64,000 nucleotides of DNA from NCBI GenBank assembly GCA_016186485.1, contig JACPLN010000008.1, positions 8,673 through 72,672 of the forward strand, written 5' to 3'. Made by a program: the position numbers and the translations under genes. Under the pieces are notes generated by a model that was not told where the DNA came from, searched no databases, and saw nothing but the letters and a program-made list of their open reading frames with translations. This DNA is from Candidatus Nealsonbacteria bacterium. Lineage in GTDB: Bacteria; Patescibacteriota; Minisyncoccia; Minisyncoccales; UBA6532. Positions 7,688 to 53,685 of the stretch are shown piece after piece (within the stretch, counting starts at the first letter, position 1; each line of letters begins with the position of its first letter).

Positions 7688-8147
7688 GGATTCAATGATT
7701 GAAACCCAGTTTTATTCAGTGAAGCCTACCGACCTTAATGCTTTGGAAACAATATACGGCGGAAAAATAGTAGACCTTATTGACTCTCTTGCAGCGATTA
7801 TTGCCAGACGCCATTCTGGAAAAACATGCGTTACTGCCTCAATGGACAGCATTGACTTCGTTCGGCCGGCAAAATCAGGAGATCTCTTAGTGCTAAAAAC
7901 GGCTATCAATAAGGTTTGGGACACCTCTTGTGAAATAGGGGTAAAAATATTCGTAGAAAACCAGGAAACAAAAGCAAGAAAGCATCTCGCCTCGGCTTAT
8001 TTAACTTTTGTAGCCCTGGACGAAAATGGAAGACCGACCCCAATGCCAAAAATCATTCTTAAAACCAAAGAGGAAAAAAGAAGATTTAGGGAAGCCGAGG
8101 ATAGGAGGAAAATAAGGCTTGCAAGAAAAACAAAGATTCGAGAATAA
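7668..8147 (+). CDS. Acyl-CoA thioesterase (hotdog fold, YciA-like)
   Basis: YGGKIVDLIDSLAAIIARRHSGKTCVTASMDSIDFVRPAKSGDLLVL...AYLTFVALDENGRP. An alternative start at 7695 would avoid the overlap. Confidence 0.75.
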   Translation: MKVKSVKDSMIETQFYSVKPTDLNALETIYGGKIVDLIDSLAAIIARRHSGKTCVTASMDSIDFVRPAKSGDLLVLKTAINKVWDTSCEIGVKIFVENQETKARKHLASAYLTFVALDENGRPTPMPKIILKTKEEKRRFREAEDRRKIRLARKTKIRE

Positions 8148-9414: not shown

Positions 9415-9430
9415 AGATAATTATTAATAG

Positions 9431-9461
9431 GAAGAACCATATGGTTCTTCCTCTTTTTTTT
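9431..9461 (+). terminator. Rho-independent terminator
   Basis: Perfect palindrome GAAGAACCATATGGTTCTTC followed by a CTCTTTTTTTT run. Confidence 0.7.
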
Positions 9462-10584: not shown

Positions 10585-11919
10585 TTGAACCTTCAAAACA
10601 ATGTAGTAATCGTCACCCATCAATGGGTTGACGGCGATGGACTAATAGCCATCGCGAAACTGAAGCGTTTCGGGGAAAACAAGATACCGGGTATATCTAG
10701 CGCAGACATTCACTTTCACGACGGAGACACCGATCGGCTGCTGGAAATCACAAAATACTATCCTACGATAGTCTTTGTGGATAAAACGCCAGACGGAGAA
10801 TTCGAAGCAGTAAAGAAAATGACTACGGTAAGGATTGAGGCCTTTGACCACCATCCTCACGATAAGTTTCCTGGCAAGACAGCAACAAGCATAGTTTCAG
10901 AGTATCTCGGACTAAAAGATAATTTAAGCCAGAAATTAGACCGCTGGGCAAGCCGGTTTGACTTCCAAACTGGCGGAGACCCAATGGATCTAAGGTTTCT
11001 GGTAAAGGAAATGCATCATGCGTACACCGAGAAAGAAGTGACTGACTGGTTCATGGAACTAATGGATGCCTGCCACGAAACCGAAGACACCAAAGCAGAT
11101 GCAAAGACCGGACGAGAATTCTTCACTAAGGCCCTGGAAGAGCATCTCAATAAAGACCAAGACATGCCAGCAAAAGACATCTTCCAAAAATGGCTAGAAA
11201 GATCTAGAGGAGGGAAACCAATTGAAGATGACATGCATATAATCAACGCCGCAGGAAAGGTACTTGAAGTATTCGGCGAAAACAAAACTAGCGTATGGCT
11301 GGCTAAAGTATTCAACGCTGTAAATGACGGCCAAAGAGTATTCCAGAAAGCAAAAGAGGACTTGAAAAAATCAGAAATATCGGTATTCGGAAACATAGTA
11401 CTCATCAGCGCTGTAACGGAAAACCCGAGATTCAACCGATTCGTTAGAAGCCAGCAAGGAAATAATATGCTGCCTCTGTCAGCGCAAGAAAAACTTGGCA
11501 AAGGACACAATCCTATTGTCTTGCAAATCTGGCCGGAAAGAAAAGGATTCCAGATTTTCGGCAACGGATTAAAACTAAGGGATGTAGTTGGGGCTCTCAG
11601 GGCAGAACTTCTGAAAATACGAGGCAAACAAATACCGACTCACTGGACAGTGCTTAAAGACGGAGGAACAATCAGTAACACCGATCCTCTATACTACCAA
11701 ACAGGGGACTTCGAAATGCTGATGTGGGGCTCGCTAACCAGAAGCAAGGTGGCGCCTGTTGATATGCCGGAAGAAACAATAAAGAAGGCGGTAACTGTGG
11801 CTCTCGATCAGACATACCTCCACAAAGACTGCAAAGATTGCACTAACAAGGGTTGCCCATTCTACGAATGGCAGCTATACCGCTGCACACAACGCCGAAG
11901 AAACCCAAACGCTACCTAA
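10585..11919 (+). CDS. Divergent DHH-family phosphoesterase-like protein with a C-terminal Cys cluster
   Basis: DHH motifs in order: THQWVDGDG (motif I), IVFVDKTPD (II), AFDHHPH (III), GKTATSIVSEYL. The C-terminus is CKDCTNKGCPFYEWQLYRC. TTG start. Confidence 0.55.
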   Translation: MNLQNNVVIVTHQWVDGDGLIAIAKLKRFGENKIPGISSADIHFHDGDTDRLLEITKYYPTIVFVDKTPDGEFEAVKKMTTVRIEAFDHHPHDKFPGKTATSIVSEYLGLKDNLSQKLDRWASRFDFQTGGDPMDLRFLVKEMHHAYTEKEVTDWFMELMDACHETEDTKADAKTGREFFTKALEEHLNKDQDMPAKDIFQKWLERSRGGKPIEDDMHIINAAGKVLEVFGENKTSVWLAKVFNAVNDGQRVFQKAKEDLKKSEISVFGNIVLISAVTENPRFNRFVRSQQGNNMLPLSAQEKLGKGHNPIVLQIWPERKGFQIFGNGLKLRDVVGALRAELLKIRGKQIPTHWTVLKDGGTISNTDPLYYQTGDFEMLMWGSLTRSKVAPVDMPEETIKKAVTVALDQTYLHKDCKDCTNKGCPFYEWQLYRCTQRRRNPNAT

Positions 11920-13348: not shown

Positions 13349-15235
13349 ATGTTAAAATTTAAAGTACGTAATAATATGAAACAAAAAAACCCAATCAAAA
13401 GCTTAGCAAACAATTTCCTGGCCATCATTTTAATCTTCCTGATGGTATCGGGCGTTTTTACTTTATTGTGGCAAGACTTTGAAAGGCCTACGGAAATCCC
13501 TTTAAGCCAGCTGGTGAAAGACATAAATAAAGAGGAGGTAAGTAAAATTACCGTTTCGGGAAACGACATTTTTATTGAATACCGGGACGGAAAAAAATCA
13601 CAATCCAAAAAGGAAGCCGAAGGATCTCTTTCTGAATCCCTGATTAACTACGGCGTAGATAAAAATAAGTTAAACTTATTGCAGGTTGAATCTAAGGAAC
13701 CCTCGGGAATTGCTGCCTGGATAGGCCCGATAATCATATTTATAGTCCCCCTGATATTATTTGGCGCATTTTTCTGGATGATATTCAGACAGGCAAAAAC
13801 AGGGGCAATGCAGGCTTTTGATTTTTCCAGAGCAAAAGCAAGGTTATTCGGCGCCGAAGGTCATCTTAAAGAAAGAATTACGTTCAAAGATGTTGCCGGG
13901 CTGCAGGAAGCCAAGGAAGAATTGAAAGAAATAGTTGACTTTTTGAAAAACCCAAAGAAGTTTCTGGCAATCGGAGCCAGAATTCCAAGAGGAGTGCTTT
14001 TGATGGGTCCTCCGGGAACTGGAAAAACCATGCTTGCAAGGGCGGTTGCCGGCGAAGCCAGGGTGCCGTTTTTGCATATTTCGGGTTCTGAATTCGTAGA
14101 AATGTTTGTTGGGGTCGGAGCTGCCAGAGTAAGAGACCTTTTCTCAACCGCAAAGAAGGCGGCCCCAGCCATTGTCTTTATTGACGAACTGGACGCGGTT
14201 GGAAGACATAGGGGAGCCGGGCTCGGAGGAGGACACGACGAAAGAGAACAAACCCTTAACCAAATTTTGGTGGAGATGGACGGTTTTGAAAGAGATACCA
14301 ATGTTATAGTCGTAGCGGCCACCAACCGCCCCGATATATTGGATCCCGCCCTACTGAGGCCGGGGAGATTTGACCGCAGGGTCGTTTTGGATTTGCCGGA
14401 TATTAAAGACAGGGAAGAGATTCTGAAAATTCACTGCAGGGAAAAACCTCTGTTTCAAGATGTTAAGCTAAGAGAGATAGCGGAAAGAACGCCTGGATTT
14501 TCAGGAGCGGACTTGGCTAACCTGGTAAACGAAGCAGCAATCTTAGCTGCAAGAAGAAATAAACAGCAGATTTACCAAGAAGAACTTTTAGAATCAATAG
14601 ACAAGGTTCTTTTGGGGCCGGAAAGAAAAAGCCACATCTTATCTCAGGACGAAAAGAAAATAGCCGCTTACCACGAAGCTGGCCACGCTTTAGTTGGCGT
14701 TTCCCTTCCTGGGGCAGAACCTGTAAGAAAAATATCTATTGTTTCTCGGGGCAGGGCCGCCGGATACACCCTGAAACTGCCGACGAAAGAAAAGCATTTA
14801 AAAAGCAAATCGGAATTCATGGCAGAAATAGCAACGGCCCTTGGGGGATATTGCGCAGAAAAAATAGTCTTTAAAGACATAACCACCGGCGCAGCCAACG
14901 ACCTGGAGAAAGCTTCTGACCTTGCCAGGCGCCTGGTAAAAGAATACGGGATGTCGGAAAAGTTAGGGCCGATTGCTTTTGGCGAAAAAGAAGAGCTGGT
15001 GTTTCTGGGAAGGGAAATCGGGGAACAAAGAAATTACTCTGAAAAAATAGCTGCCCAAATAGACAAAGAGGTCGCCAACATTATTAACAAAGCAATGAAG
15101 ACGGCAATTGGCGTTATCGGGAAAAAAAGGAGGATTTTAGACAGAATAGCAAAAACTTTGGCTGAAAAAGAAACAATTGAAAGAGAGGAATTTGAAAAAA
15201 TCATTAAATCCGGTGGGTCTAAAAAAAATGTATAA
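13349..15235 (+). CDS. ftsH: ATP-dependent zinc metalloprotease FtsH
   Basis: GPPGTGKT Walker A, DELDAVG, the SRH region, and the HEAGHA zinc motif. An alternative start lies at 13376 (MKQKNPIK). Confidence 0.95.
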
Positions 15236-16515: not shown

Positions 16516-16546
16516 CAAGGTATACATCTAATTGTGAATAAGTTGT

Positions 16547-16575
16547 TTGAAAATTAGTACCTCTGAGCGTATAAT
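16547..16575 (+). promoter_or_regulatory. Putative promoter TTGAAA-17-TATAAT
   Basis: TTGAAA at 16547-16552 and TATAAT at 16570-16575, 7 nt before the 16582 ATG. Confidence 0.55.
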
Positions 16576-16581
16576 GTATAA

Positions 16582-21904: not shown

Positions 21905-21935
21905 AAAAGCCCGTAACCGCTGGACAATTTCCATT
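21905..21935. repeat. Copy of the CGCTGGAC intergenic motif (family shared with 48.3-51.1 kb)
   Basis: AAAGCCCGTAACCGCTGGACAATTTCC. Compare GCCCGTAAGG...CGCTGGACGG at 48343-48378. Confidence 0.4.
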
Positions 21936-22528: not shown

Positions 22529-22710
22529 GCGTTTTGAGTGGCACTGTTGCCACTTTTTATTTCCCCCAATCTTGACTTAAAGATAAGTAGCGGGATAGAT
22601 AACCCTTGCTTTTCCTTTTGAGTTCATTTGATTTTCAGCCCCCTCCTTCCTCCGGCGATAAACTAAGAATGAAAAAGCGTTCGGAAGCCAGACTTCCTTC
22701 GGTTATGGAC

Positions 22711-48315: not shown

Positions 48316-48328
48316 ATATTATATGCTA

Positions 48329-48427
48329 CCAAAAAATCGCCCGGCCCGTAAGGCATAGGGCGATTTTTCGCTGGACGGAAACCTATTTGGTGAAATAAAA
48401 AGAGGAGAAACCTCAGGGTACTCCTCT
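48329..48427. repeat. Conserved 3'-flank module, copy A (hairpin 1, CGCTGGAC motif, A-run, hairpin 2)
   Basis: AAAAAATCGCCC..GGGCGATTTTT, then CGCTGGAC (48369-48376), then GGTGAAATAAAAAG, then the hairpin AGAGGAG..CTCCTCT. Confidence 0.5.
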
Positions 48428-48443
48428 ATTAACTTTTATAGCT

Positions 48444-48992
48444 CTAATGCCAAGGACTCTCCCAGTCGTAAGCCTCCTTAAGGCGCCCTAAACATCTCAG
48501 CTGAAGATATTTATAGGTCTTTTCGCCGCAAATCTCTCTTACAACAGAAAGAAAGACTAAACGCTTATCTTTACTGATCCTGCTCCCCTTTTCCGTGACA
48601 AGCTTGTCAAGTATACCCTGAAGAATTTCTACCGTTGGACGCCGGCTGACCAGAAAAAATCTCAATACTTGTGCTTGGTCTTGGATATTCATGTAGCCTT
48701 CGCTATCCCATATAGCAACGATGTCGGCCGAATTGAGCTCGCGAGATGTTAGTGTCGATATGGCTAATTTATAAAGCCTGCCGTTAATACCACCTCGTTG
48801 AAGGAAAATAAGCAAATCGTGTATTGCGAAGCGATGCGGTTGATCTTCAAGGAGATTCGCCAGTAATAGATTAAGTTCTCTGCATTGTCGTGGCGTCACG
48901 CCATCTATCGCATACTGGTATTGCCTAGTGTTCCACTTCTTTATTAGTTGTTTAAGTTCTATATCTGCAATATCCTTGGACTGTGTATTCAT
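48444..48992 (-). CDS. Hypothetical protein (182 aa from ATG 48992)
   Basis: ORF with an AAAGGTG ribosome-binding-like site 9 nt upstream. No recognised domain. Confidence 0.5.
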   Translation of the reverse strand: MNTQSKDIADIELKQLIKKWNTRQYQYAIDGVTPRQCRELNLLLANLLEDQPHRFAIHDLLIFLQRGGINGRLYKLAISTLTSRELNSADIVAIWDSEGYMNIQDQAQVLRFFLVSRRPTVEILQGILDKLVTEKGSRISKDKRLVFLSVVREICGEKTYKYLQLRCLGRLKEAYDWESPWH

Positions 48993-49096
48993 TTCTATTC
49001 GCACCTTTCAAATGAAACTACCATAGTCTATAAAAACTGTAAACCCCCAGGTTGTGGCCCCGCCTACGAGACCCTGCCTACCGGTAGGCAGGGATA

Positions 49097-50071
49097 TTAT
49101 AATCTGATTTCTTTCTCCAGCCAATCAATGTGTTGAGTTTTGCGTTTCCAGAAAATATCTTCCCAGATGTAGTGAGAAGCTAATTTCTCCCAATCCGCAT
49201 ATCGTTTTTTGAGGAAAAAAAGAATTTTGTTGACCGAAACGAGTTTCTTCTTAAATAACAGTCTTGAAAATATCTTTTGCTCCCATGGCGGAATTGTTTC
49301 TAAGGTACCGCAATGGTAGAAGTCATCGAAAAGAAGATATTCTACGGACGCCTTGCCAATTCCATAAAGTTTTAGGGCTTCTTTTTTCGCTTCATCTCTG
49401 GGCAATTTTCTTAACCGATATTCGTCTATTTCGCCGCTCGCGAACTGTTCCGAAATTCGCTTAAGAAACTTTGCGCGATAACCCAGTTTAAGCTTTCTCA
49501 AAACATCTTCGCTTACCCTCGCTATCGCTCGCGGTTTCCAAAATGCGGAAAGTATTTTGCCATCAAATTTCACCCTTTTGCCAAATCGCTTAAAAAGATT
49601 TTCTAACATCTGATGCGTTCGCCTTACCGTCGCATTTTGCAAAACTATGTAAATAATAAGCGTCTCGTAAAGAGAGTTAGCAGCTACTGGCTTCATACCC
49701 TTCCATTTTTTGATGAAAGGCGCCAGAACCCTGTCCTTTTTAAAGCGATTAATAAAATCGGCTATATCGTTCTCTGTATTAAAACGATATTTTATCTCTG
49801 GAATAAGCTTCTTAATAAATTCTTTATTGAGAGCCCTTTCTGAAAACACGCTTATTCTGATTTTAGGCCTATTGATAGTTCCGTCGTTTTCTAACTTAAA
49901 TCCCAATACTTTGCCGCCCCAAATCACTGTGATCCAATACTTTCCCTTCATCCATTCGTTGTCTGAAGATGGAAAATGAGACGGTTTGTGTATGGTTGCG
50001 TCAAAATTATATGGTGGTTTGGGCTGTAGGCTAAATGATGTTTTCGAATTTAGATTTAAAACTTTAGTCAT
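49097..50071 (-). CDS. HhH-GPD superfamily DNA glycosylase (AlkA/Ogg-like)
   Basis: LYETLIIYIVLQNATVRRTHQMLENLFKRFG and LKLYGIGKASVEYLLF (HhH). Start at MTKVLNLN (50071). The upstream track extension covers module copy B. Confidence 0.68.
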   Translation of the reverse strand: MTKVLNLNSKTSFSLQPKPPYNFDATIHKPSHFPSSDNEWMKGKYWITVIWGGKVLGFKLENDGTINRPKIRISVFSERALNKEFIKKLIPEIKYRFNTENDIADFINRFKKDRVLAPFIKKWKGMKPVAANSLYETLIIYIVLQNATVRRTHQMLENLFKRFGKRVKFDGKILSAFWKPRAIARVSEDVLRKLKLGYRAKFLKRISEQFASGEIDEYRLRKLPRDEAKKEALKLYGIGKASVEYLLFDDFYHCGTLETIPPWEQKIFSRLLFKKKLVSVNKILFFLKKRYADWEKLASHYIWEDIFWKRKTQHIDWLEKEIRL

Positions 50072-50114
50072 ATTTAATTCAGCATCCAACTTATCCGCAT
50101 TTAATAATCTTATC

Positions 50115-50213
50115 AAAAAACATCGCCCGCGGCGATGCTTATCCAATTTTGCTCCGGGCGCTGGACTATTTTTGGAAATAAAAAAAGCGGGTTGAAGTTA
50201 TCGCACCGCATTT
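50115..50213. repeat. Conserved 3'-flank module, copy B
   Basis: AAAAAACATCGCCCGCGGCGATG, then GCTCCGGGCGCTGGACTATTTTTGGAAATAAAAAAAG, then a hairpin, then a T run. Confidence 0.5.
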
Positions 50214-50238
50214 ATTTTTTGTTGAAACTAGCGCATCT

Positions 50239-50508
50239 TCACTCGGGCTTGCCTTCGGGCATGAATTTCTCGGGACCTCCGGGGGGCAAATCTACCGGTT
50301 CAGTGTACTTGACAGCCCCGCGTTGTACAACTTTGAGATCCGGCGCATCGAAAGTTTTAGACTCTGGCAGTTTACCGTCTTTTTCAACCATTGGTTGAAC
50401 ACTTATCCGGTCACAACCATTTAGATATCGATGAAGTGCCACCGCGATGCCTTTAAATCCTGAAACCCGGTCCTTCACCAGATCACCAAGTTTCGCTTTG
50501 TGATTCAT
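50239..50508 (-). CDS. Hypothetical 89-aa protein, GC-richer
   Basis: Own TTGACA-17-TAACTT promoter (50536-50564, minus strand) and a strong AAAGGAGGTG site. No recognised domain. Confidence 0.55.
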   Translation of the reverse strand: MNHKAKLGDLVKDRVSGFKGIAVALHRYLNGCDRISVQPMVEKDGKLPESKTFDAPDLKVVQRGAVKYTEPVDLPPGGPEKFMPEGKPE

Positions 50509-50630
50509 TCTTTCATTTCACCTCCTTTCCTAAATAAGTTATCACACGTATAAAAAATTGTCAATCCCCATGGTTACATTCTACTCCGAAATGCAACACG
50601 AAACAGGAATTGTTTAATTAACCATTTCTT

Positions 50631-50700
50631 TACTGACTCCGGACGTTGGACTATTTTCGGGAAACAAAAAGAGGAAGAACCTTATGGTTTCTTACCTTCT
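50631..50700. repeat. Conserved 3'-flank module, copy C
   Basis: TTACTGACTCCGGACGTTGGACTATTTTCGGGAAACAAAAAG, then the hairpin GAGGAAGAACC..GGTTTCTTACCTTC. Confidence 0.5.
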
Positions 50701-50716
50701 TATTTTAAGAGACGGT

Positions 50717-51058
50717 TTACCTTGCAGAAAGGCTAGCGGGAATCCAGATCTCCCTTCTGTTAGAACTACAAGCATCCAATACTAATAGTTTCCCTCTTAT
50801 CTTTTTAGCATAATCTTGTAAGGCCGCAGTCGGCGTTCTGCCTTCACCATAAGTGCTAATCAATAATCCATCATCCTCATCTTTTTTGGTCTCAGAATTC
50901 TTAAACTCACAGGTGAATCTATGATCCTGACTTGGAATATTTGGAAAACGCGTGATAACTAAGTCTCTTCCTATAATGTCAGCAAGCTCGCATATATTCA
51001 TCTTATTCGTCTCCCCGTCTCTAATAATGATGTTAGCATTTACATGTTTTTCTGTCAA
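50717..51058 (-). CDS. Hypothetical protein (start uncertain: TTG 51058 or the internal ATG at MNICELAD)
   Basis: 113-aa ORF. The internal ATG has GGGGAG 8 nt upstream. Confidence 0.45.
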   Translation of the reverse strand: MTEKHVNANIIIRDGETNKMNICELADIIGRDLVITRFPNIPSQDHRFTCEFKNSETKKDEDDGLLISTYGEGRTPTAALQDYAKKIRGKLLVLDACSSNRREIWIPASLSAR

Positions 51059-51366
51059 CTCCTACAGAACTCCATAACATGTTGGAAAACAAAACCGCCT
51101 TCTCCTTCGGTTTTATTCAGGACAGGTTGGCGATTTTTCACGGCTTGCGCTGAGTTTGTCGAAGTGCTCCCCAGTTCAACAATTAACCGACTTGTGGTGA
51201 GCCGAATCGAACCAAAGCTTATTTCTATTCTGGAGAACAGGGAGTATATGACGATGTTGAAGGAGAAACTGGCGGAAATTAAGCGGTTTTGCAGGATGCC
51301 AGCCTTAACTTCAGCAAATTAAAAAATGGCTGCCTAGGATATTCCTGACAGCCACTTATAAACATT

Positions 51367-51915
51367 TTATTTTATAGAGAGAACTGGCGTTGTGTACCAT
51401 CCAGGATGAGAGCCATCAAGACATTTAATTTCTATGCCATCGCTAACGCTCAAGTAAATTATAATACAACGAGTAAAATCAAGGGGGTTGCCATCTCGAG
51501 AAACAGTCCTTTCCCCCTTTTGGTTAGCTTCGCCAAACCGATATACCGAATTACGAGTGGTAACGATAATAGCCTTTGTGGGAATTTCTGCCATTTTTTG
51601 AATAAGGGGGTTGGGGATATTGAGAGCAAGATAAATATTAGCGAGCGATCTTCTGTTTTGCGTACCCGCATGCCCTGGCGCGTCAGCACTACCCTTAATA
51701 TCTGGATGTTGATATTGCCAATTACTTTCCCATTCCTTTTCACATTCAATCAAAACTTCGTCAACAGATTTATTGTTTTCATTTGCAAATAGAAAGATAC
51801 TTGCAATCACAATTTGACCGTCTTTAGAAAATCCTCTGTTTAAGAAGTCTTCAATTCGCCTAATCTCACCACTTGTAAAATGAGCTTCCAATTTGACTTT
51901 TATTTCGCTATCCAT
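51367..51915 (-). CDS. Hypothetical protein (~182 aa)
   Basis: AAAGGAGGG precedes two in-frame ATGs. The second (51915) has ideal spacing. No recognised domain. Confidence 0.5.
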   Translation of the reverse strand: MDSEIKVKLEAHFTSGEIRRIEDFLNRGFSKDGQIVIASIFLFANENNKSVDEVLIECEKEWESNWQYQHPDIKGSADAPGHAGTQNRRSLANIYLALNIPNPLIQKMAEIPTKAIIVTTRNSVYRFGEANQKGERTVSRDGNPLDFTRCIIIYLSVSDGIEIKCLDGSHPGWYTTPVLSIK

Positions 51916-51989
51916 TACCATCCCTCCTTTTTAAATTACTATAGCTATACTACAAAATTACAAAGCAAAAAGCAATACTATTCAAAAAA

Positions 51990-52008
51990 GTTCGAGTCCT
52001 GCCCCGGG
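51990..52008 (+). repeat. Inverted, diverged copy of the tRNA-Asn 3' end
   Basis: GTTCGAGTCCTGCCCCGGG on the plus strand against GTTCGAATCCTGCCCGCGG in tRNA-Asn on the minus strand, about 60 bp away. Confidence 0.5.
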
Positions 52009-52068
52009 TAAGTCAAAATTCCGCCAAAATAGCGGAATTTTTAAGCTAAAGTTAGACTAAAATGGTTG

Positions 52069-52140
52069 CTCCGCGGGCAGGATTCGAACCTGCAACCTAG
52101 TGCTTAACAGGCACCCGCGCTACCATTGCGCCACCGCGGA
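52069..52140 (-). tRNA. tRNA-Asn (anticodon GUU)
   Basis: Acceptor TCCGCGG/CCGCGGA, D arm GCGC-AATGGTA-GCGC, anticodon stem GGTGC/GCACT with loop CTGTTAA, T arm GCAGG-TTCGAAT-CCTGC. Confidence 0.9.
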
Positions 52141-52144
52141 ATAA

Positions 52145-52390
52145 CTAATTTTTGCCTAAAATTCTTTTAATAAATCTTCTTCCCGCCGCAGATTTAAAAT
52201 ATTTTTCTCTTTTTCTTGCCTCAAGAATATTCAGGAATTCTTCTTTATATATTAACATCCATGGTTTGTATTTTTTAGAAAATTCTGTCTTTCCCGATTT
52301 GTGCTCTTTCATTCTTCTTGCTATATCAGTAGTACTCCCTACGTAAGTTTTTGGATATTCTATACTTTTTAGAATATAAACATAATTCAT
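52145..52390 (-). CDS. Small GIY-YIG nuclease family protein (81 aa)
   Basis: MNYVYILKS...KTYVGSTTDIARRMKEHKSG...YKEEF...EARKREKYFK carries the GIY/YIG, R and E motifs. The start is trimmed to 52390 because the upstream 20 codons translate the tRNA fragment and hairpin. The stop lies 4 nt from the tRNA-Asn 5' end. Confidence 0.75.
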   Translation of the reverse strand: MNYVYILKSIEYPKTYVGSTTDIARRMKEHKSGKTEFSKKYKPWMLIYKEEFLNILEARKREKYFKSAAGRRFIKRILGKN

Positions 52391-52396
52391 AAAAGA

Positions 52397-52464
52397 CCCC
52401 GCGCTACCCGCCTCGACTCGCTGAAGCGAGCCTTCGGCGAGGCGGGCCATTGCGCCACCGCGGA
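52397..52464 (-). pseudogene. Duplicated tRNA-Asn 5' fragment (nt 1-27) interrupted in the D loop by a 40-nt GC-rich palindrome
   Basis: 52447-52466 is identical to 52123-52142 (CCATTGCGCCACCGCGGAAT). 52398-52408 is identical to 52114-52124 (CCCGCGCTACC). The insert at 52407-52446 is CCCGCCTCG...CGAGGCGGG. Confidence 0.75.
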
Positions 52465-52497
52465 ATGTATCTTATTTTACAAATTTTTAATGAAAAA

Positions 52498-53685
52498 TCA
52501 ATACCCCTTGAGCTTCTTTAGGCCGCGGTGATCCCTGATTCTGTCTAGGGCCTTGGCTTCAATTTGGCGGATTCTTTCTCTGGTCACCCCGAAAACTTGG
52601 CCCACCTCTTCCAGGGTATGGGTAATTCCGTCTTCTAGGCCAAAACGCATTGAAAGAATCTTCTGCTCTTTTGGAGTTAAGTCAAAGAGAATTTCCTTTA
52701 GTCTCCCCCTCAAAAGAGATCTTGCCGCATCAAGAGATGGAGCGGTAATTTTTTCATCCGCTATAAACTCGGCTAAAACGCTGTCTTCTTTATCCTCGCC
52801 AACCGGGGTTTCCAAAGAAACGGTTTCCTGGGAAATCTGCATAATGTGCCTAACCTTTTCTACGTCAAGCTCCATTTCTGACGCTATTTCTTCCGGAAGG
52901 GGTTCCCTGCCTAAATCCTGCAGAAGTCTTCTCCGAACCTGAGTGTATTTTGAAATTGTTTCTACCATGTGCACGGGAATCCTAATCGTTCTTGCCTGAT
53001 CTGCCAGGGCTCTGGTTATAGCTTGCCTTATCCACCAAGTGGCATAAGTAGAAAACTTATATCCCCTCCTCCAATCAAACTTTTCCACCGCCCTGAATAA
53101 TCCCAGGTTTCCTTCCTGTATTAAATCCAACAAGGTCAAATTGGGAGACCTGCCGACGTATTTCTTAGCGATAGAAACAACAAGCCTTAGGTTTGCCTGA
53201 GCAAGCTTCTTTTTCGCTTCTTCGTCGCCTTTCTCTATTTTTTTTGCAAGCTCTTTTTCTTGATCTGCGGTCAAAAATGCGGTTTTGCCGATTTCTTTCA
53301 AATACATCTGAACTGGATCCGGATGCGCTTCTGCCGGGACTTCCAAATAACGCGATGTTTCTCCAGGCTTTTTTTCAGGAGTCCCCAGAAGCTCTACCGA
53401 TTCTTTTACTTCTATCCCCCGCTTTTCCAATTCCTGATAAAGCGAGTCAAGCCCCCTGACATCGTTTTCAATATTTGGGAAAAAATAAAGAATTTCTGAA
53501 TAGGTGACAAACCCGCGAGATTCCCCTTTTTTAATCAAAGACTCTATATCGTCCAAAGAGAAAACTGGGCCCTTGCCTCGCCTGGGCCTTATCTTCTTTG
53601 CTCTTTTGGAAAACCTCCTTTTTCTAATGGGATTTGTCTTCCCTTTTTTTCTAATTTTTAGCTTCTTTTTCTTCTTTTTTGGCAT
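52498..53685 (-). CDS. rpoD: RNA polymerase primary sigma factor
   Basis: Region 2 ([13 protein letters not shown]), region 3, and region 4 ([24 protein letters not shown]). K/R-rich N-terminal tail. Confidence 0.95.

Follow-up and report, generated by a model that had tools for sequence, protein, structure and literature searches.

The stretch from 48316 to 52068 of the window studied here (the whole 64 kb of DNA analysed, from a Candidatus Nealsonbacteria MAG) is interpreted, with moderate confidence, as a small, decayed and recombinase-less mosaic of integrated-element remnants, in which repeated intergenic modules would represent old attachment junctions combined with terminators. Candidatus Nealsonbacteria belong to the CPR/Patescibacteria and are tiny bacteria of groundwater. 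The evidence supports the view that the locus was assembled by horizontal transfer at a tRNA-Asn gene serving as an integration hotspot. As proposed in a preliminary description of this DNA, the region directly adjoins a tRNA-Asn gene, whose 3' end faces the island. The features of the locus are as follows.

48318 to 48439, minus strand: module c1 (nhmmer; fold)
48444 to 48992, minus strand: P_A, 182 aa, with Shine-Dalgarno (SD) site AGGTG
49072 to 49093, unstranded: perfect palindrome CCCTGCCTACCGGTAGGCAGGG, 3 nt past the glycosylase stop codon (sequence)
49097 to 50071, minus strand: HhH-GPD (AlkA/Ogg-type) DNA glycosylase (PF00730, 4.8e-8; TIGR00588, 1e-16; PDB 4ejy, 3e-18)
50103 to 50236, minus strand: module c2 (nhmmer)
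50239 to 50508, minus strand: P_C, 89 aa, phage-family protein (phrog_16275, 2e-20)
50604 to 50715, minus strand: module c3, without hairpin 1 (nhmmer)
50717 to 51058, minus strand: P_D, 113 aa from TTG (ORF list)
51091 to 51114, minus strand: hairpin with T-run, an ordinary terminator-like site
51327 to 51354, unstranded: terminator-like hairpin after P_E, with A-run and T-run (hairpin scan, sequence)
51367 to 51915, minus strand: P_E, 182 aa, with promoter-like site and SD AAGGAGG
51990 to 52008, plus strand: partial inverted copy of tRNA-Asn covering T-loop, T-stem and acceptor 3' strand (inverted repeat, pattern search)
52019 to 52037, unstranded: hairpin TTCCGC..GCGGAA with A-run and T-run (hairpin/T-run scan, sequence)
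52068 to 52140, minus strand: tRNA-Asn (GTT), the hotspot anchor (ARAGORN; Rfam RF00005, 72.4 bits)

All three modules lie directly 3' of minus-strand genes and are mutual best non-self hits when single copies are used as nhmmer queries against the window (E 9e-4 to 0.027), with a modest similarity of 12-16 bits. The hairpins and T-runs described for them are present in hairpin scans and folds. A fourth copy proposed at 51066-51117 retrieves no other copy, is missed by their profile, and amounts to the hairpin and T-run at 51091-51114, while an 8-mer (CGCTGGAC) at 21918, thought to be a stray core, occurs four times in the window against about two expected and is ascribed to chance. Each full module reads as hairpin 2, a core and hairpin 1. 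In c1, hairpin 2 with its T-run (48401-48427) resembles that of c3 and is followed by a partial core (48369-48388) retaining TCCAGCG and lacking CCCGGAGC, and by hairpin 1 with its T-run (48336-48364), the stem of which is common to c2. The corresponding parts of c2 lie at 50186-50208, 50149-50166 and 50120-50137, followed at 50106-50114 by TGATAAGAT, an apparent extended -10 element upstream of the glycosylase gene. In c3, hairpin 2 with its T-run lies at about 50672-50700 and the core, which resembles the tRNA-Asn 3' end, at 50636-50650. That homologous flanks accompany non-homologous ORFs thus holds, and the copies are moreover mosaic: hairpin 2 is common to c1 and c3, the core to c2 and c3, and hairpin 1 to c1 and c2. 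Divergence between c2 and c3 is uneven, a core block in which they are about 90% identical lying between unrelated hairpins, and boundaries vary from copy to copy. A kept core, differing flanks and mosaic copies form the pattern expected of junctions between related elements.

The main competing explanation, unlikely on present evidence, is that the terminator-bearing 3' flank of one gene was duplicated locally two or three times by slippage or unequal recombination, its likeness to a tRNA being coincidental. The low similarity among copies is consistent with this, as is their confinement to 2.4 kb, neither profile nor single-copy nhmmer searches having found further copies within the window. 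Elsewhere in the fetched loci only short Logan contigs of the same locus and a weak match in L090 were recovered, the exact 21-mer of the core gave three chance-like hits in unrelated sequence (JGI metagenomes), and an 18-nt version had no matches in IMG/VR. The hairpin and T-run features are, in addition, generic in this genome: a c3-like hairpin 2 recurs at 9429-9460, and the T-run with its ATTTCC tail at 22538-22575. Part of the likeness among modules is therefore generic terminator style, a point that also weighs against the reading as attachment junctions. Local duplication does not readily account for the highly similar core of c2 and c3 between unrelated hairpins, nor for the specific resemblance of that core to the very 3' terminus of tRNA-Asn in direct orientation.

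This resemblance, missed in the preliminary description, suggests that the core began as a copy of the tRNA-Asn 3' end and has since worn down. The c2 core is identical to the terminus at 14/17 positions and is the sole match in the window with <=3 mismatches besides the tRNA itself (0.13 expected; local-alignment p=0.004), and the c3 core resembles the tRNA-Asn 3' ends of relatives (p=0.003). When 61 tRNA genes were scored, the top seven against c3 were all tRNA-Asn 3' ends; against c2 the single best was tRNA-Asn, with five tRNA-Asn and one tRNA-Leu tied one point lower. A worn copy of this kind, in direct orientation, speaks for attachment-site junctions more than for shuffling signals or RNA genes. 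Against this stand the shortness and degeneracy of the cores, the fact that several of the tests were devised after the data were seen, and the lack of a significant tRNA-Asn match for c1 by itself. A further tRNA-like fragment, GTTCGAGTCCTGCCCCGGG at 51990..52008, is 16/19 identical to tRNA-Asn (counted by hand) and inverted; an analogous inverted fragment lies 3' of the tRNA-Asn of another locus, L094. The hairpin at 52019..52037, immediately after the tRNA gene, is terminator-like in both strand directions.

The proposal that this site is an integration hotspot was borne out in relatives. The comparison took in four independent relatives (L089, L090/L091, L092 and L101) whose rpoD is 80-82% identical, and 4/4 carry different mobile or defence DNA just after rpoD/tRNA-Asn, as follows.

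L089: large serine recombinase, Bro-N and MmeI-type restriction-modification system
L090/L091: large serine recombinase, the gene overlapping the tRNA 3' end
L092: restriction-modification systems and GmrSD
L101: truncated serine recombinase overlapping the tRNA, IS200/605 transposase, RhuM and PIF1

The resemblance of c3 extends beyond the tRNA: about 11 nt past the core (50625-50635) are similar to the stretch with which the relatives' serine-recombinase genes end. Across the L090 tRNA/recombinase junction c3 matches at 21/26 positions (shuffle p=4e-4), a score reached by 1/1192 real chunks of the window, and c2 matches the L101 junction at 20/26 (p=0.004). When the 12 nt following GGAG were compared across junctions, c3 matched the recombinase-bearing junctions of L090, L101 and L089 at 10/12, 9/12 and 7/12 and the recombinase-free junctions (window tRNA, L092, L094) at 4-6/12, while c2 matched L101 and L089 at 7/12 each. 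An extension into recombinase-gene-like sequence at recombinase-bearing junctions only argues against local duplication. So does the presence of a similar repeated unit in a relative's island: in that of L090, a hairpin-1-like unit similar to c1 and c2 (p 3e-4 to 6e-3) occurs twice, once with a T-loop 9-mer in front of it. Other observations count against attachment junctions. Neither the island nor, in tblastn searches using the recombinases of the relatives as queries, the window yielded a recombinase gene, pseudogene or remnant, in agreement with the preliminary description. In the relatives, a span of 10 kb revealed no distal repeat of the tRNA end (<=5 mismatches), a weak site in L090 with the T-loop 9-mer being the only candidate, and the modules lack significant dyad symmetry. 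Serine recombinases do not need long direct repeats, a point that was likewise counted on this side.

Under the preferred reading of the modules as attachment junctions, elements like those of the relatives would have inserted into tRNA-Asn, each bearing a large serine recombinase gene that overlaps, at its 3' end, the 3' end of the tRNA. The incoming element would supply a replacement tRNA 3' end and displace the old one, with the sequence behind it, outwards, so that successive insertions would leave a row of junctions. Later deletion would have removed the recombinase genes and left in place cargo genes equipped with expression signals of their own. Each module would then combine an intrinsic-terminator-like hairpin 2 with T-run, ending the upstream cargo gene; a core of about 20 nt in the tRNA's own orientation, comprising the T-stem 3' strand, the acceptor 3' strand and the first bases beyond the tRNA; and, in c1 and c2, a hairpin 1 with T-run, perhaps once a terminator after the tRNA end, that would lead into a -10-like element of the next gene. 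Today the hairpins most likely do no more than terminate transcription and insulate neighbouring genes from one another, with the cores left as scars. We infer this order of events as well as the cores' present lack of function.

The genes themselves had been described as orphans, which is overstated. P_A matches only itself among 5.8 billion clusters and, by these searches, is the sole true ORFan of the island; P_D has no relatives in Pfam, PHROG, PADLOC or NCBIfam and no phage match. P_C, in contrast, belongs to a phage family, with matches in 32 phage records, all <60% identical (34-45% among the matches listed), and 52% identity to a protein on a 93-kb IMG/VR contig. P_E, with 162 relatives at E<=1e-3 (50%-cluster level) and identity up to 70%, is no orphan either and represents a conserved, uncharacterised two-domain family, found here only in CPR-type contexts, that has no match in Pfam, PHROG, PADLOC or NCBIfam. 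Structure prediction added a confident AlphaFold2 model for P_E (pLDDT 94.6), which has no PDB or BFVD match, and a single-sequence model for P_A (pLDDT 78, pTM 0.69), predicted to be an all-alpha solenoid, again with no significant PDB match. A P_E homologue also adjoins tRNA-Asn in L094/L095; its position in L094 could reflect long-standing synteny and not cargo status, in which case the sequence of events proposed above would become more complicated. P_D more likely starts at the ATG at 51004, giving 95 aa, because a promoter-like TTGACA-17-TAACAT occupies 51058-51030 (10/12 with TG in the promoter scan). A TTGACA hexamer (50564-50559) lies upstream of P_C, whose start codon is overlapped by an upstream ORF of three codons. 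The central glycosylase gene had been omitted from the list of island genes; it looks native, since it lacks an SD and has typical codon usage, and this too counts against an island made of integrated remnants.

Three island genes carry strong SDs unlike those of core genes, as had been noted: AAGGAGGT before 50508 (P_C), AAGGAGG before 51915 (P_E) and AGGTG before 48992 (P_A). The first two are the strongest at credible start codons in the window, that of P_C being the strongest, whereas 43/72 ORFs outside the island have no SD-like motif even with the best candidate start chosen. Strong SDs occur at about 3% of window ORFs, 5-6% in close relatives and 38-48% in Firmicutes control loci, and among Parcubacteria 16S rRNAs only 48% had a detectable anti-SD motif (PMC9297842). 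The island SDs are thus foreign-looking in a lineage that barely uses them. GC content, GC3 and codon bias do not set the island apart, its genes falling within 1-2 SD of the remaining window, which speaks against a foreign origin.

Two functional roles suggested for the modules fared poorly. A small or cis-acting RNA between or including the hairpins, on either strand and perhaps antisense to the 3' ends of cargo genes, is improbable. The conserved 21-nt block of c2 and c3 does sit between two terminator-like hairpins, and the plus-strand TCCGG-NNN-YTGGA of both could form a 5-bp hairpin with G-U pairs. However, a search against Rfam gave no match even at E<=5, predicted folds leave the core unpaired and show no stable or shared structure for it (c2 and c3 z-scores of -0.09 to -1.4, not significant), and no convincing promoter was seen by eye on either strand; three copies, one with a disrupted core, are too few for covariation. 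Slightly less probable still is an active integron-like cassette array, in which gene and module move together under a recombinase encoded elsewhere in the genome. The small, co-oriented genes, for most of which no function is known, would suit such an array, as would the related repeat (about 100 nt) behind three of them, the mosaic copies and the breaks in Logan short-read assemblies of the same population (51173-51195, ~50032-50052 and 49127). These breaks fall outside the modules, however, each module that is complete has two separate, ordinary terminator hairpins rather than one attC-type hairpin, and RYYYAAC/GTTRRRY boxes were not found by eye. Nor do the absence of significant dyad symmetry in the modules and of an integrase from the window, the promoter-like sites and SDs belonging to several of the genes, or the lack of a module at P_E and the glycosylase gene fit an array. 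Least probable is a MITE- or REP-like non-autonomous miniature element favouring gene 3' ends, which would explain several short copies with internal hairpins and A-run/T-run ends but not the absence of terminal inverted repeats beyond these runs, of visible target-site duplications and of dispersed copies in the 64 kb or public collections, nor the differing copy boundaries. Read as a row of worn attachment junctions beside tRNA-Asn, the locus would be a genomic island of a familiar kind, seldom described in this group.

The tRNA-Asn locus of this Candidatus Nealsonbacteria contig is laid out in the following minus-strand order.

Gene order at the tRNA-Asn locus
dnaG and rpoD (rpoD at 52498-53685), minus strand, first in the local order
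52145-52390, GIY-YIG ORF, between rpoD and tRNA-Asn
52068-52140, minus strand, tRNA-Asn, with its 3' end at 52068 and the island from 52067 downwards
51367-51915, minus strand, P_E
50717-51058, minus strand, P_D
50239-50508, minus strand, P_C
49097-50071, minus strand, HhH-GPD glycosylase
48444-48992, minus strand, P_A
a small membrane ORF and a Germane-domain protein, after P_A

The genes of P_A and rpoD are also found on short contigs in the Logan assemblies of SRR12113420, SRR12113422 and SRR12113424. The closest rpoD proteins in a search of 5.8 billion clusters are only 80-82% identical, and the comparison is therefore one between family relatives, not strains. Assembly breaks shared by two or three of the Logan samples fall inside the island at 51173-51195, about 50032-50052 and 49127; these could reflect strain or population variants or shared k-mers. 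A T-loop-like 10-mer (GGTTCGATTC, 51204-51213) lies beside the first of these breaks and was considered as an extra junction, but it was set aside as too weak, with about one chance match per pattern expected in the window.

Different mobile or defence DNA follows directly after rpoD and tRNA-Asn in four of four independent relatives (rpoD 80-82% identical).

Content after rpoD and tRNA-Asn in the relatives
L089: large serine recombinase, Bro-N, MmeI-type restriction-modification system, HTH_17 protein
L090/L091: large serine recombinase ORF overlapping the last 15 nt of tRNA-Asn
L092: restriction-modification systems, GmrSD, PD-(D/E)XK protein
L101: truncated serine recombinase overlapping the tRNA, IS200/605 transposase, RhuM, PIF1, PRiA4-type protein

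With four relatives compared and four different contents at the site, the view of this tRNA as an integration hotspot, put forward in the preliminary description, is supported. The loci L089, L090/L091 and L101 encode a protein with Resolvase, Recombinase and Zn_ribbon_recom domains at the 3' end of tRNA-Asn. Two GTDB contigs of more distant relatives (L005 and L013) end at or just past the tRNA. The island was described as free of recombinases, and Pfam searches and tblastn with the relatives' recombinases bear this out, neither detecting a recombinase or integrase in the window. Nor did tblastn find recombinase remnants in the island below E=1.

Three genes of the island are followed by a module comprising hairpin 2 with a T-run, a core of about 20 nt, and hairpin 1 with a T-run. 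Three minus-strand copies are recognized here, c1 (48318-48439), c2 (50103-50236) and c3 (50604-50715, without hairpin 1). A profile built from these three best copies recovers only the same three in the window; as this test is circular, every copy was also run singly as a query, and in each case the other two were the top non-self matches (E 9e-4 to 0.027 for the 64-kb window). Three of the four copies originally claimed are thus reciprocal best matches, and the fourth (51066-51117), which retrieves no copy and is retrieved by none, is another hairpin with a T-run. The 8-mer CGCTGGAC, proposed as a further module core at 21918, is present four times in the window, where chance predicts about two, and no meaning attaches to its occurrence at 21918.

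Similarity between the copies is real yet modest, and it is mosaic. Hairpin 2 is common to c1 and c3, the hairpin 1 stem ATCGCC(C)/GGGCGAT to c1 and c2, and a T-run, the motif TTyCCrAAAATAG and a 21-nt core (19 of 21 positions, counted by hand) to c2 and c3. Both hairpins have G+C-rich stems with A-runs in front and T-runs behind, and stand 3' of a gene; with their T-runs they look like ordinary intrinsic terminators. A hairpin much like hairpin 2 of c3 ends an unrelated gene at 9429-9460, and the T-run with an ATTTCC tail is found again at 22538-22575. In its terminator portions the module thus follows, in part, the general style of this genome; what sets it apart is the core. Searched as an exact 21-mer, the core gave three matches in JGI metagenomes, chance-like and all within unrelated sequence, and an 18-mer of it gave none in IMG/VR. 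Phage and plasmid collections searched by blastn with the entire island also returned no match. A coding reading of the core on the plus strand (SGRWTIFG) was rejected, as only eight residues are common and no ORF is shared; the four differences between c2 and c3 all fall on third codon positions of that reading (estimated p about 1/27).

The core resembles the 3' end of tRNA-Asn. In c2, TTGCTCCGGGCGCTGGA pairs with the tRNA terminus TTGCTCCGCGGGCAGGA at 14 of 17 positions in the same orientation, as reported by a repeat finder, and a search with the terminal 17-mer allowing up to three mismatches returned only the tRNA itself and c2 in the window (0.13 expected). Local alignment of the cores with all 11 tRNAs of the window and four tRNA-Asn genes of relatives gave p<=0.006 for tRNA-Asn only, always in forward orientation and always at the 3' terminus. 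Among 61 tRNA genes scored, a set in which tRNA-Asn is over-represented (16 of 61), the seven best against c3 are tRNA-Asn ends and the single best against c2 is tRNA-Asn; one point below the latter, five more tRNA-Asn genes tie with one tRNA-Leu. The core of c3 matches tRNA-Asn ends of relatives, the tRNA-Asn match of c1 alone is not significant, and the tRNA-end repeats of the island are degenerate (14/17 or worse), none being exact.

This likeness continues beyond the tRNA end. Between c3 (TCCAACGTCCGGAGTCAGTAAAGAAA) and the L090 junction (TCCTACCGCCGGAGCCAGTAAGGAAA), 21 of 26 positions are identical (shuffle p=4e-4), a score reached by 1 of 1192 real 100-nt chunks of the window; c2 and the L101 junction share 20 of 26 (p=0.004). 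When the 12 nt after GGAG were compared between c3 and six junctions, identity was 10/12, 9/12 and 7/12 with the recombinase-bearing junctions as against 4-6/12 with the three recombinase-free ones. In the relatives these 12 nt are the recombinase C-terminus, coded on the opposite strand. It is this run past the tRNA end and into sequence like the 3' end of the recombinase gene that makes c3 look like a relic fusion of the two, with the gene since deleted. The c2 copy resembles a tRNA 3' end that has been displaced, with hairpin 1 as the terminator behind it, followed by a -10-like element of the glycosylase, a layout similar to that of tRNA-Asn and its terminator in L094, a locus of a P_E homologue. 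An 18-mer of the junction gave six matches in IMG/VR, none near a tRNA or recombinase. The tRNA and junction matches are short and degenerate, and some of the tests were framed after the data had been seen.

Further partial copies of the tRNA lie nearby. An inverted copy of the T-loop, T-stem and acceptor strand lies at 51990-52008, about 50-60 nt downstream of the tRNA, and the same arrangement is found with L094's own tRNA at 7825-7848, where 17 nt are identical between T-arm and inverted copy (hand count). In both genomes the inverted T-arm copy lies just upstream of the P_E family gene. The GIY-YIG nuclease ORF at 52145-52390 (Pfam 1e-15; homing and group I intron endonucleases are matched weakly) is flanked on one side by the intact tRNA-Asn and on the other by a pseudo-copy of the first 27 nt of the tRNA. 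This pseudo-copy consists of an exact 20-mer (52447-52466) and TAGCGCGGG (52398-52406), which are separated in the D-loop by a 40-nt hairpin rich in GC (52407-52446). The stretch 52145-52466 has the appearance of a nuclease cassette that either entered the 5' part of the tRNA or was copied along with it.

The relatives show features of their own. The L090 island has a two-copy hairpin-1-like repeat (13896-13951 and 16522-16577) downstream of unrelated genes, each unit consisting of ATCGCC..GGYGG, then a T-run, TGnTAnnAT and lastly ATGAAAGGTCGG; in front of the second copy lies the T-loop 9-mer AGGTTCGAA. The units resemble c1 and c2 (p 3e-4 to 6e-3), and single-sequence nhmmer over 1.56 Mb of loci gave no cross-genome link between them and the window modules. 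The tRNA-Asn gene of L089, whose rpoD is 80% identical, holds in its anticodon loop a group I intron of about 200 nt (11283-11560; Rfam RF00028 at 40.8 bits and E 5e-9, short of the gathering score of 50), and ARAGORN misses the split tRNA. The 956-aa dnaG product of L101 (7134-10004) has weak Pfam Hint and Hint_2 matches, suggesting an intein insertion.

We lean towards an account of the island as a mosaic of integrated-element remnants at tRNA-Asn, in which the modules are old junctions with terminators and the recombinase genes have been lost. Elements would insert in tRNA-Asn, restore its 3' end by their own copy and displace the old end outwards. Repeated insertion would then produce the order tRNA, P_E and P_D unit, c3, P_C unit, c2, glycosylase and P_A, c1. 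The recombinase genes would be lost later, and surviving genes would keep their own expression signals, with the hairpins still acting as terminators. Several observations count against this account: tblastn detected no recombinase remnant, the matches are short and degenerate and part of the tests post hoc, c1 is not significant alone, and composition is host-like. Dyad symmetry of the serine-recombinase-site type is not significant in the modules. A distal tRNA-end repeat was seen within 10 kb in none of L089, L090, L092, L094 and L101, bar a weak site in L090. The adjacency of P_E and tRNA-Asn is repeated in L094 and may be old synteny.

A plain local duplication of a terminator region would account for copies confined to this locus, and profile and single-copy searches found none beyond the island in the 64 kb. 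We consider it rather unlikely, as the likeness to tRNA-Asn specifically and to the end of the recombinase gene is left unaccounted for. It is improbable that the modules are working secondary attachment sites at which one-gene units are stacked and reshuffled at tRNA-Asn by a large serine recombinase that a co-resident element or phage provides in trans; in such a cassette-capture system every unit would carry its own promoter, Shine-Dalgarno (SD) site and terminator, and the P_E family would be a recurrent passenger. If true, such a system would be a functional integron analogue based on a different enzyme and a tRNA-derived site. A small RNA, which Rfam, folding and promoters leave unsupported, is similarly improbable. 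Rfam matched the tRNA alone, both at the gathering threshold and at E<=5, and folding of both strands of each copy gave terminator hairpins only, with the core unstructured and z-scores not significant; three copies are too few for covariation within the module. An active integron-like array is also improbable. Inspection by eye revealed no attC boxes of the form R''(RYYYAAC)...R'(GTTRRRY), the predicted folds have a pair of distinct terminator hairpins where attC would form a single imperfect one, and several island genes have promoter-like sites and SDs upstream, at odds with promoterless cassettes. A MITE is very unlikely, there being no dispersed copies in the 64 kb, no clear ends, and no clear terminal repeats or target-site duplications at the modules. 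The preliminary description is thus confirmed in part: the island at a hotspot is supported, and the small-RNA and cassette readings find no support.

The genes of the island, introduced as orphans, differ in this respect. P_A is a true ORFan in cluster searches, and AlphaFold2, run on its sequence alone, predicts an all-alpha solenoid with fair confidence (pLDDT 78); the model has no significant match in PDB. No relative of P_D turned up in the libraries searched either; as its annotated start, a TTG, coincides with a strong promoter-like site, translation probably begins at the ATG at 51004. The orphan label fails for P_C, which belongs to a phage family: it matches phrog_16275 (2e-20), has homologues in 32 phage records, mostly of Gordonia and Rhodobacter phages, and is 52% identical to a homologue encoded on an IMG/VR contig of 93 kb. 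Its expression signals are a TTGACA hexamer, a strong SD and, behind the gene, a terminator hairpin. Its start codon is overlapped, as ATGA, by an upstream ORF of three codons (ATG AAA GAA TGA; 50508-50519, minus strand), and the spacing of the strong SD fits this ORF rather than P_C, which suggests translational coupling of the two. The label fails also for P_E, with 162 relatives at the 50%-cluster level, the closest up to 70% identical, and both of its domains found as separate proteins as well. Its AlphaFold2 model (about 180 aa, 33-sequence alignment, pLDDT 94.6) has five helices followed by a beta domain, and no match was found in PDB or BFVD structures, in Pfam or PDB by sequence, or among phage proteins. 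A promoter-like site, an SD and a terminator hairpin accompany P_E as well. A TTGACT -35 hexamer precedes the homologous genes of four other genomes, and an SD is found in five of five genomes, the window included, in lineages mostly lacking SDs. Every P_E-homologue context fetched resembles a CPR genome, and P_E thus leaves the orphan pile as a widespread, confidently folding family with, so far, only CPR-type contexts. The AlkA/Ogg-like glycosylase (49097-50071) has no SD and typical codon usage, and therefore looks native.

Use of SD sites sets some of these genes apart. With every ORF assigned its best candidate start codon, an SD-like motif is lacking in 43 of the 72 ORFs outside the island. 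Among credible start codons, those of P_C (AAGGAGGT) and P_E (AAGGAGG) have the strongest SDs, and the sole other 7-nt match stands at a GTG 59 codons inside an ORF. By a cruder count, strong SDs precede 3% of window ORFs and 5-6% of those in Nealsonbacteria-like relatives; control loci from Staphylococcus and Sporosarcina give 38-48%. Core genes in the window and in L089-L092 have upstream regions that are just A+T-rich, the lineage being nearly SD-free. The low count agrees with the detection of an anti-SD motif in only 48% of Parcubacteria 16S rRNAs (PMC9297842). The contrast with core genes noticed at the outset is therefore genuine, P_C and P_E being clearly unlike the host in SD usage. 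The island genes do not stand out from the host in GC content, GC3 or codon bias, and the suggested GC and codon check yielded no foreign signature. If this reading is right, a strong SD marks recently acquired genes in SD-poor lineages despite native-looking GC and codon usage.

Should the remnant account be correct, the locus would show in detail how mobile DNA accumulates and decays site-specifically at a tRNA in CPR bacteria, where integrated elements are seldom dissected. The site would also be tied to serine-recombinase elements of one family, with a recombinase gene that runs into tRNA-Asn.

Islands linked to tRNA genes can be bounded by direct repeats of the tRNA 3' end, as in the Yersinia high-pathogenicity island (asn tRNA, 17-bp repeat), and several islands may accumulate in tandem at a single tRNA. 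Like these, the present island abuts a tRNA 3' end, has sequences resembling partial direct copies of that end inside it and at its edge, varies in content among relatives, and holds cargo of unknown function with foreign-looking expression signals. Unlike the classic examples, it has no integrase, its repeats are degenerate, its units span only about 0.5-1.8 kb with one or two genes each, and its host is a CPR bacterium; the enzyme of the relatives is a large serine recombinase in place of a P4-type tyrosine integrase. Large serine recombinases serve prophages and integrative elements such as phiC31, Bxb1, A118 and those of SCCmec type, and they exchange strands at a 2-bp crossover and need no long repeat; a repeat here would therefore derive from the element's own tRNA-end copy. 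The resemblance to such elements lies in the recombinase at tRNA-Asn in relatives and in the right flank of c3, which resembles the 3' ends of those genes, although the window has no such gene and dyad symmetry in its modules is not significant. Integron arrays and CALINs share the small co-oriented ORFs, mostly of unknown function, with an inverted-repeat-bearing repeat of about 100 nt behind them and no integrase nearby. They differ in attC architecture and R''/R' boxes, which are lacking here, and in that several island genes have their own promoter-like sites, SDs and terminators, some have no module, and the anchor is a tRNA, not attI. Phage morons are units of promoter, ORF and terminator within prophages; P_C, of a phage family, with its TTGACA, SD and terminator, and P_E, with its promoter-like site, SD and terminator, are similar, but no prophage surrounds them and P_E has no phage homologue. 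Hairpins 1 and 2, with their A-runs and T-runs, resemble intrinsic or bidirectional terminators, and differ from plain ones in standing in tandem around a conserved non-hairpin core, which makes the module more than a terminator. Current understanding is not overturned by the locus, which is probably a tRNA-linked mosaic island with junction scars, of a known kind, in an under-studied phylum.
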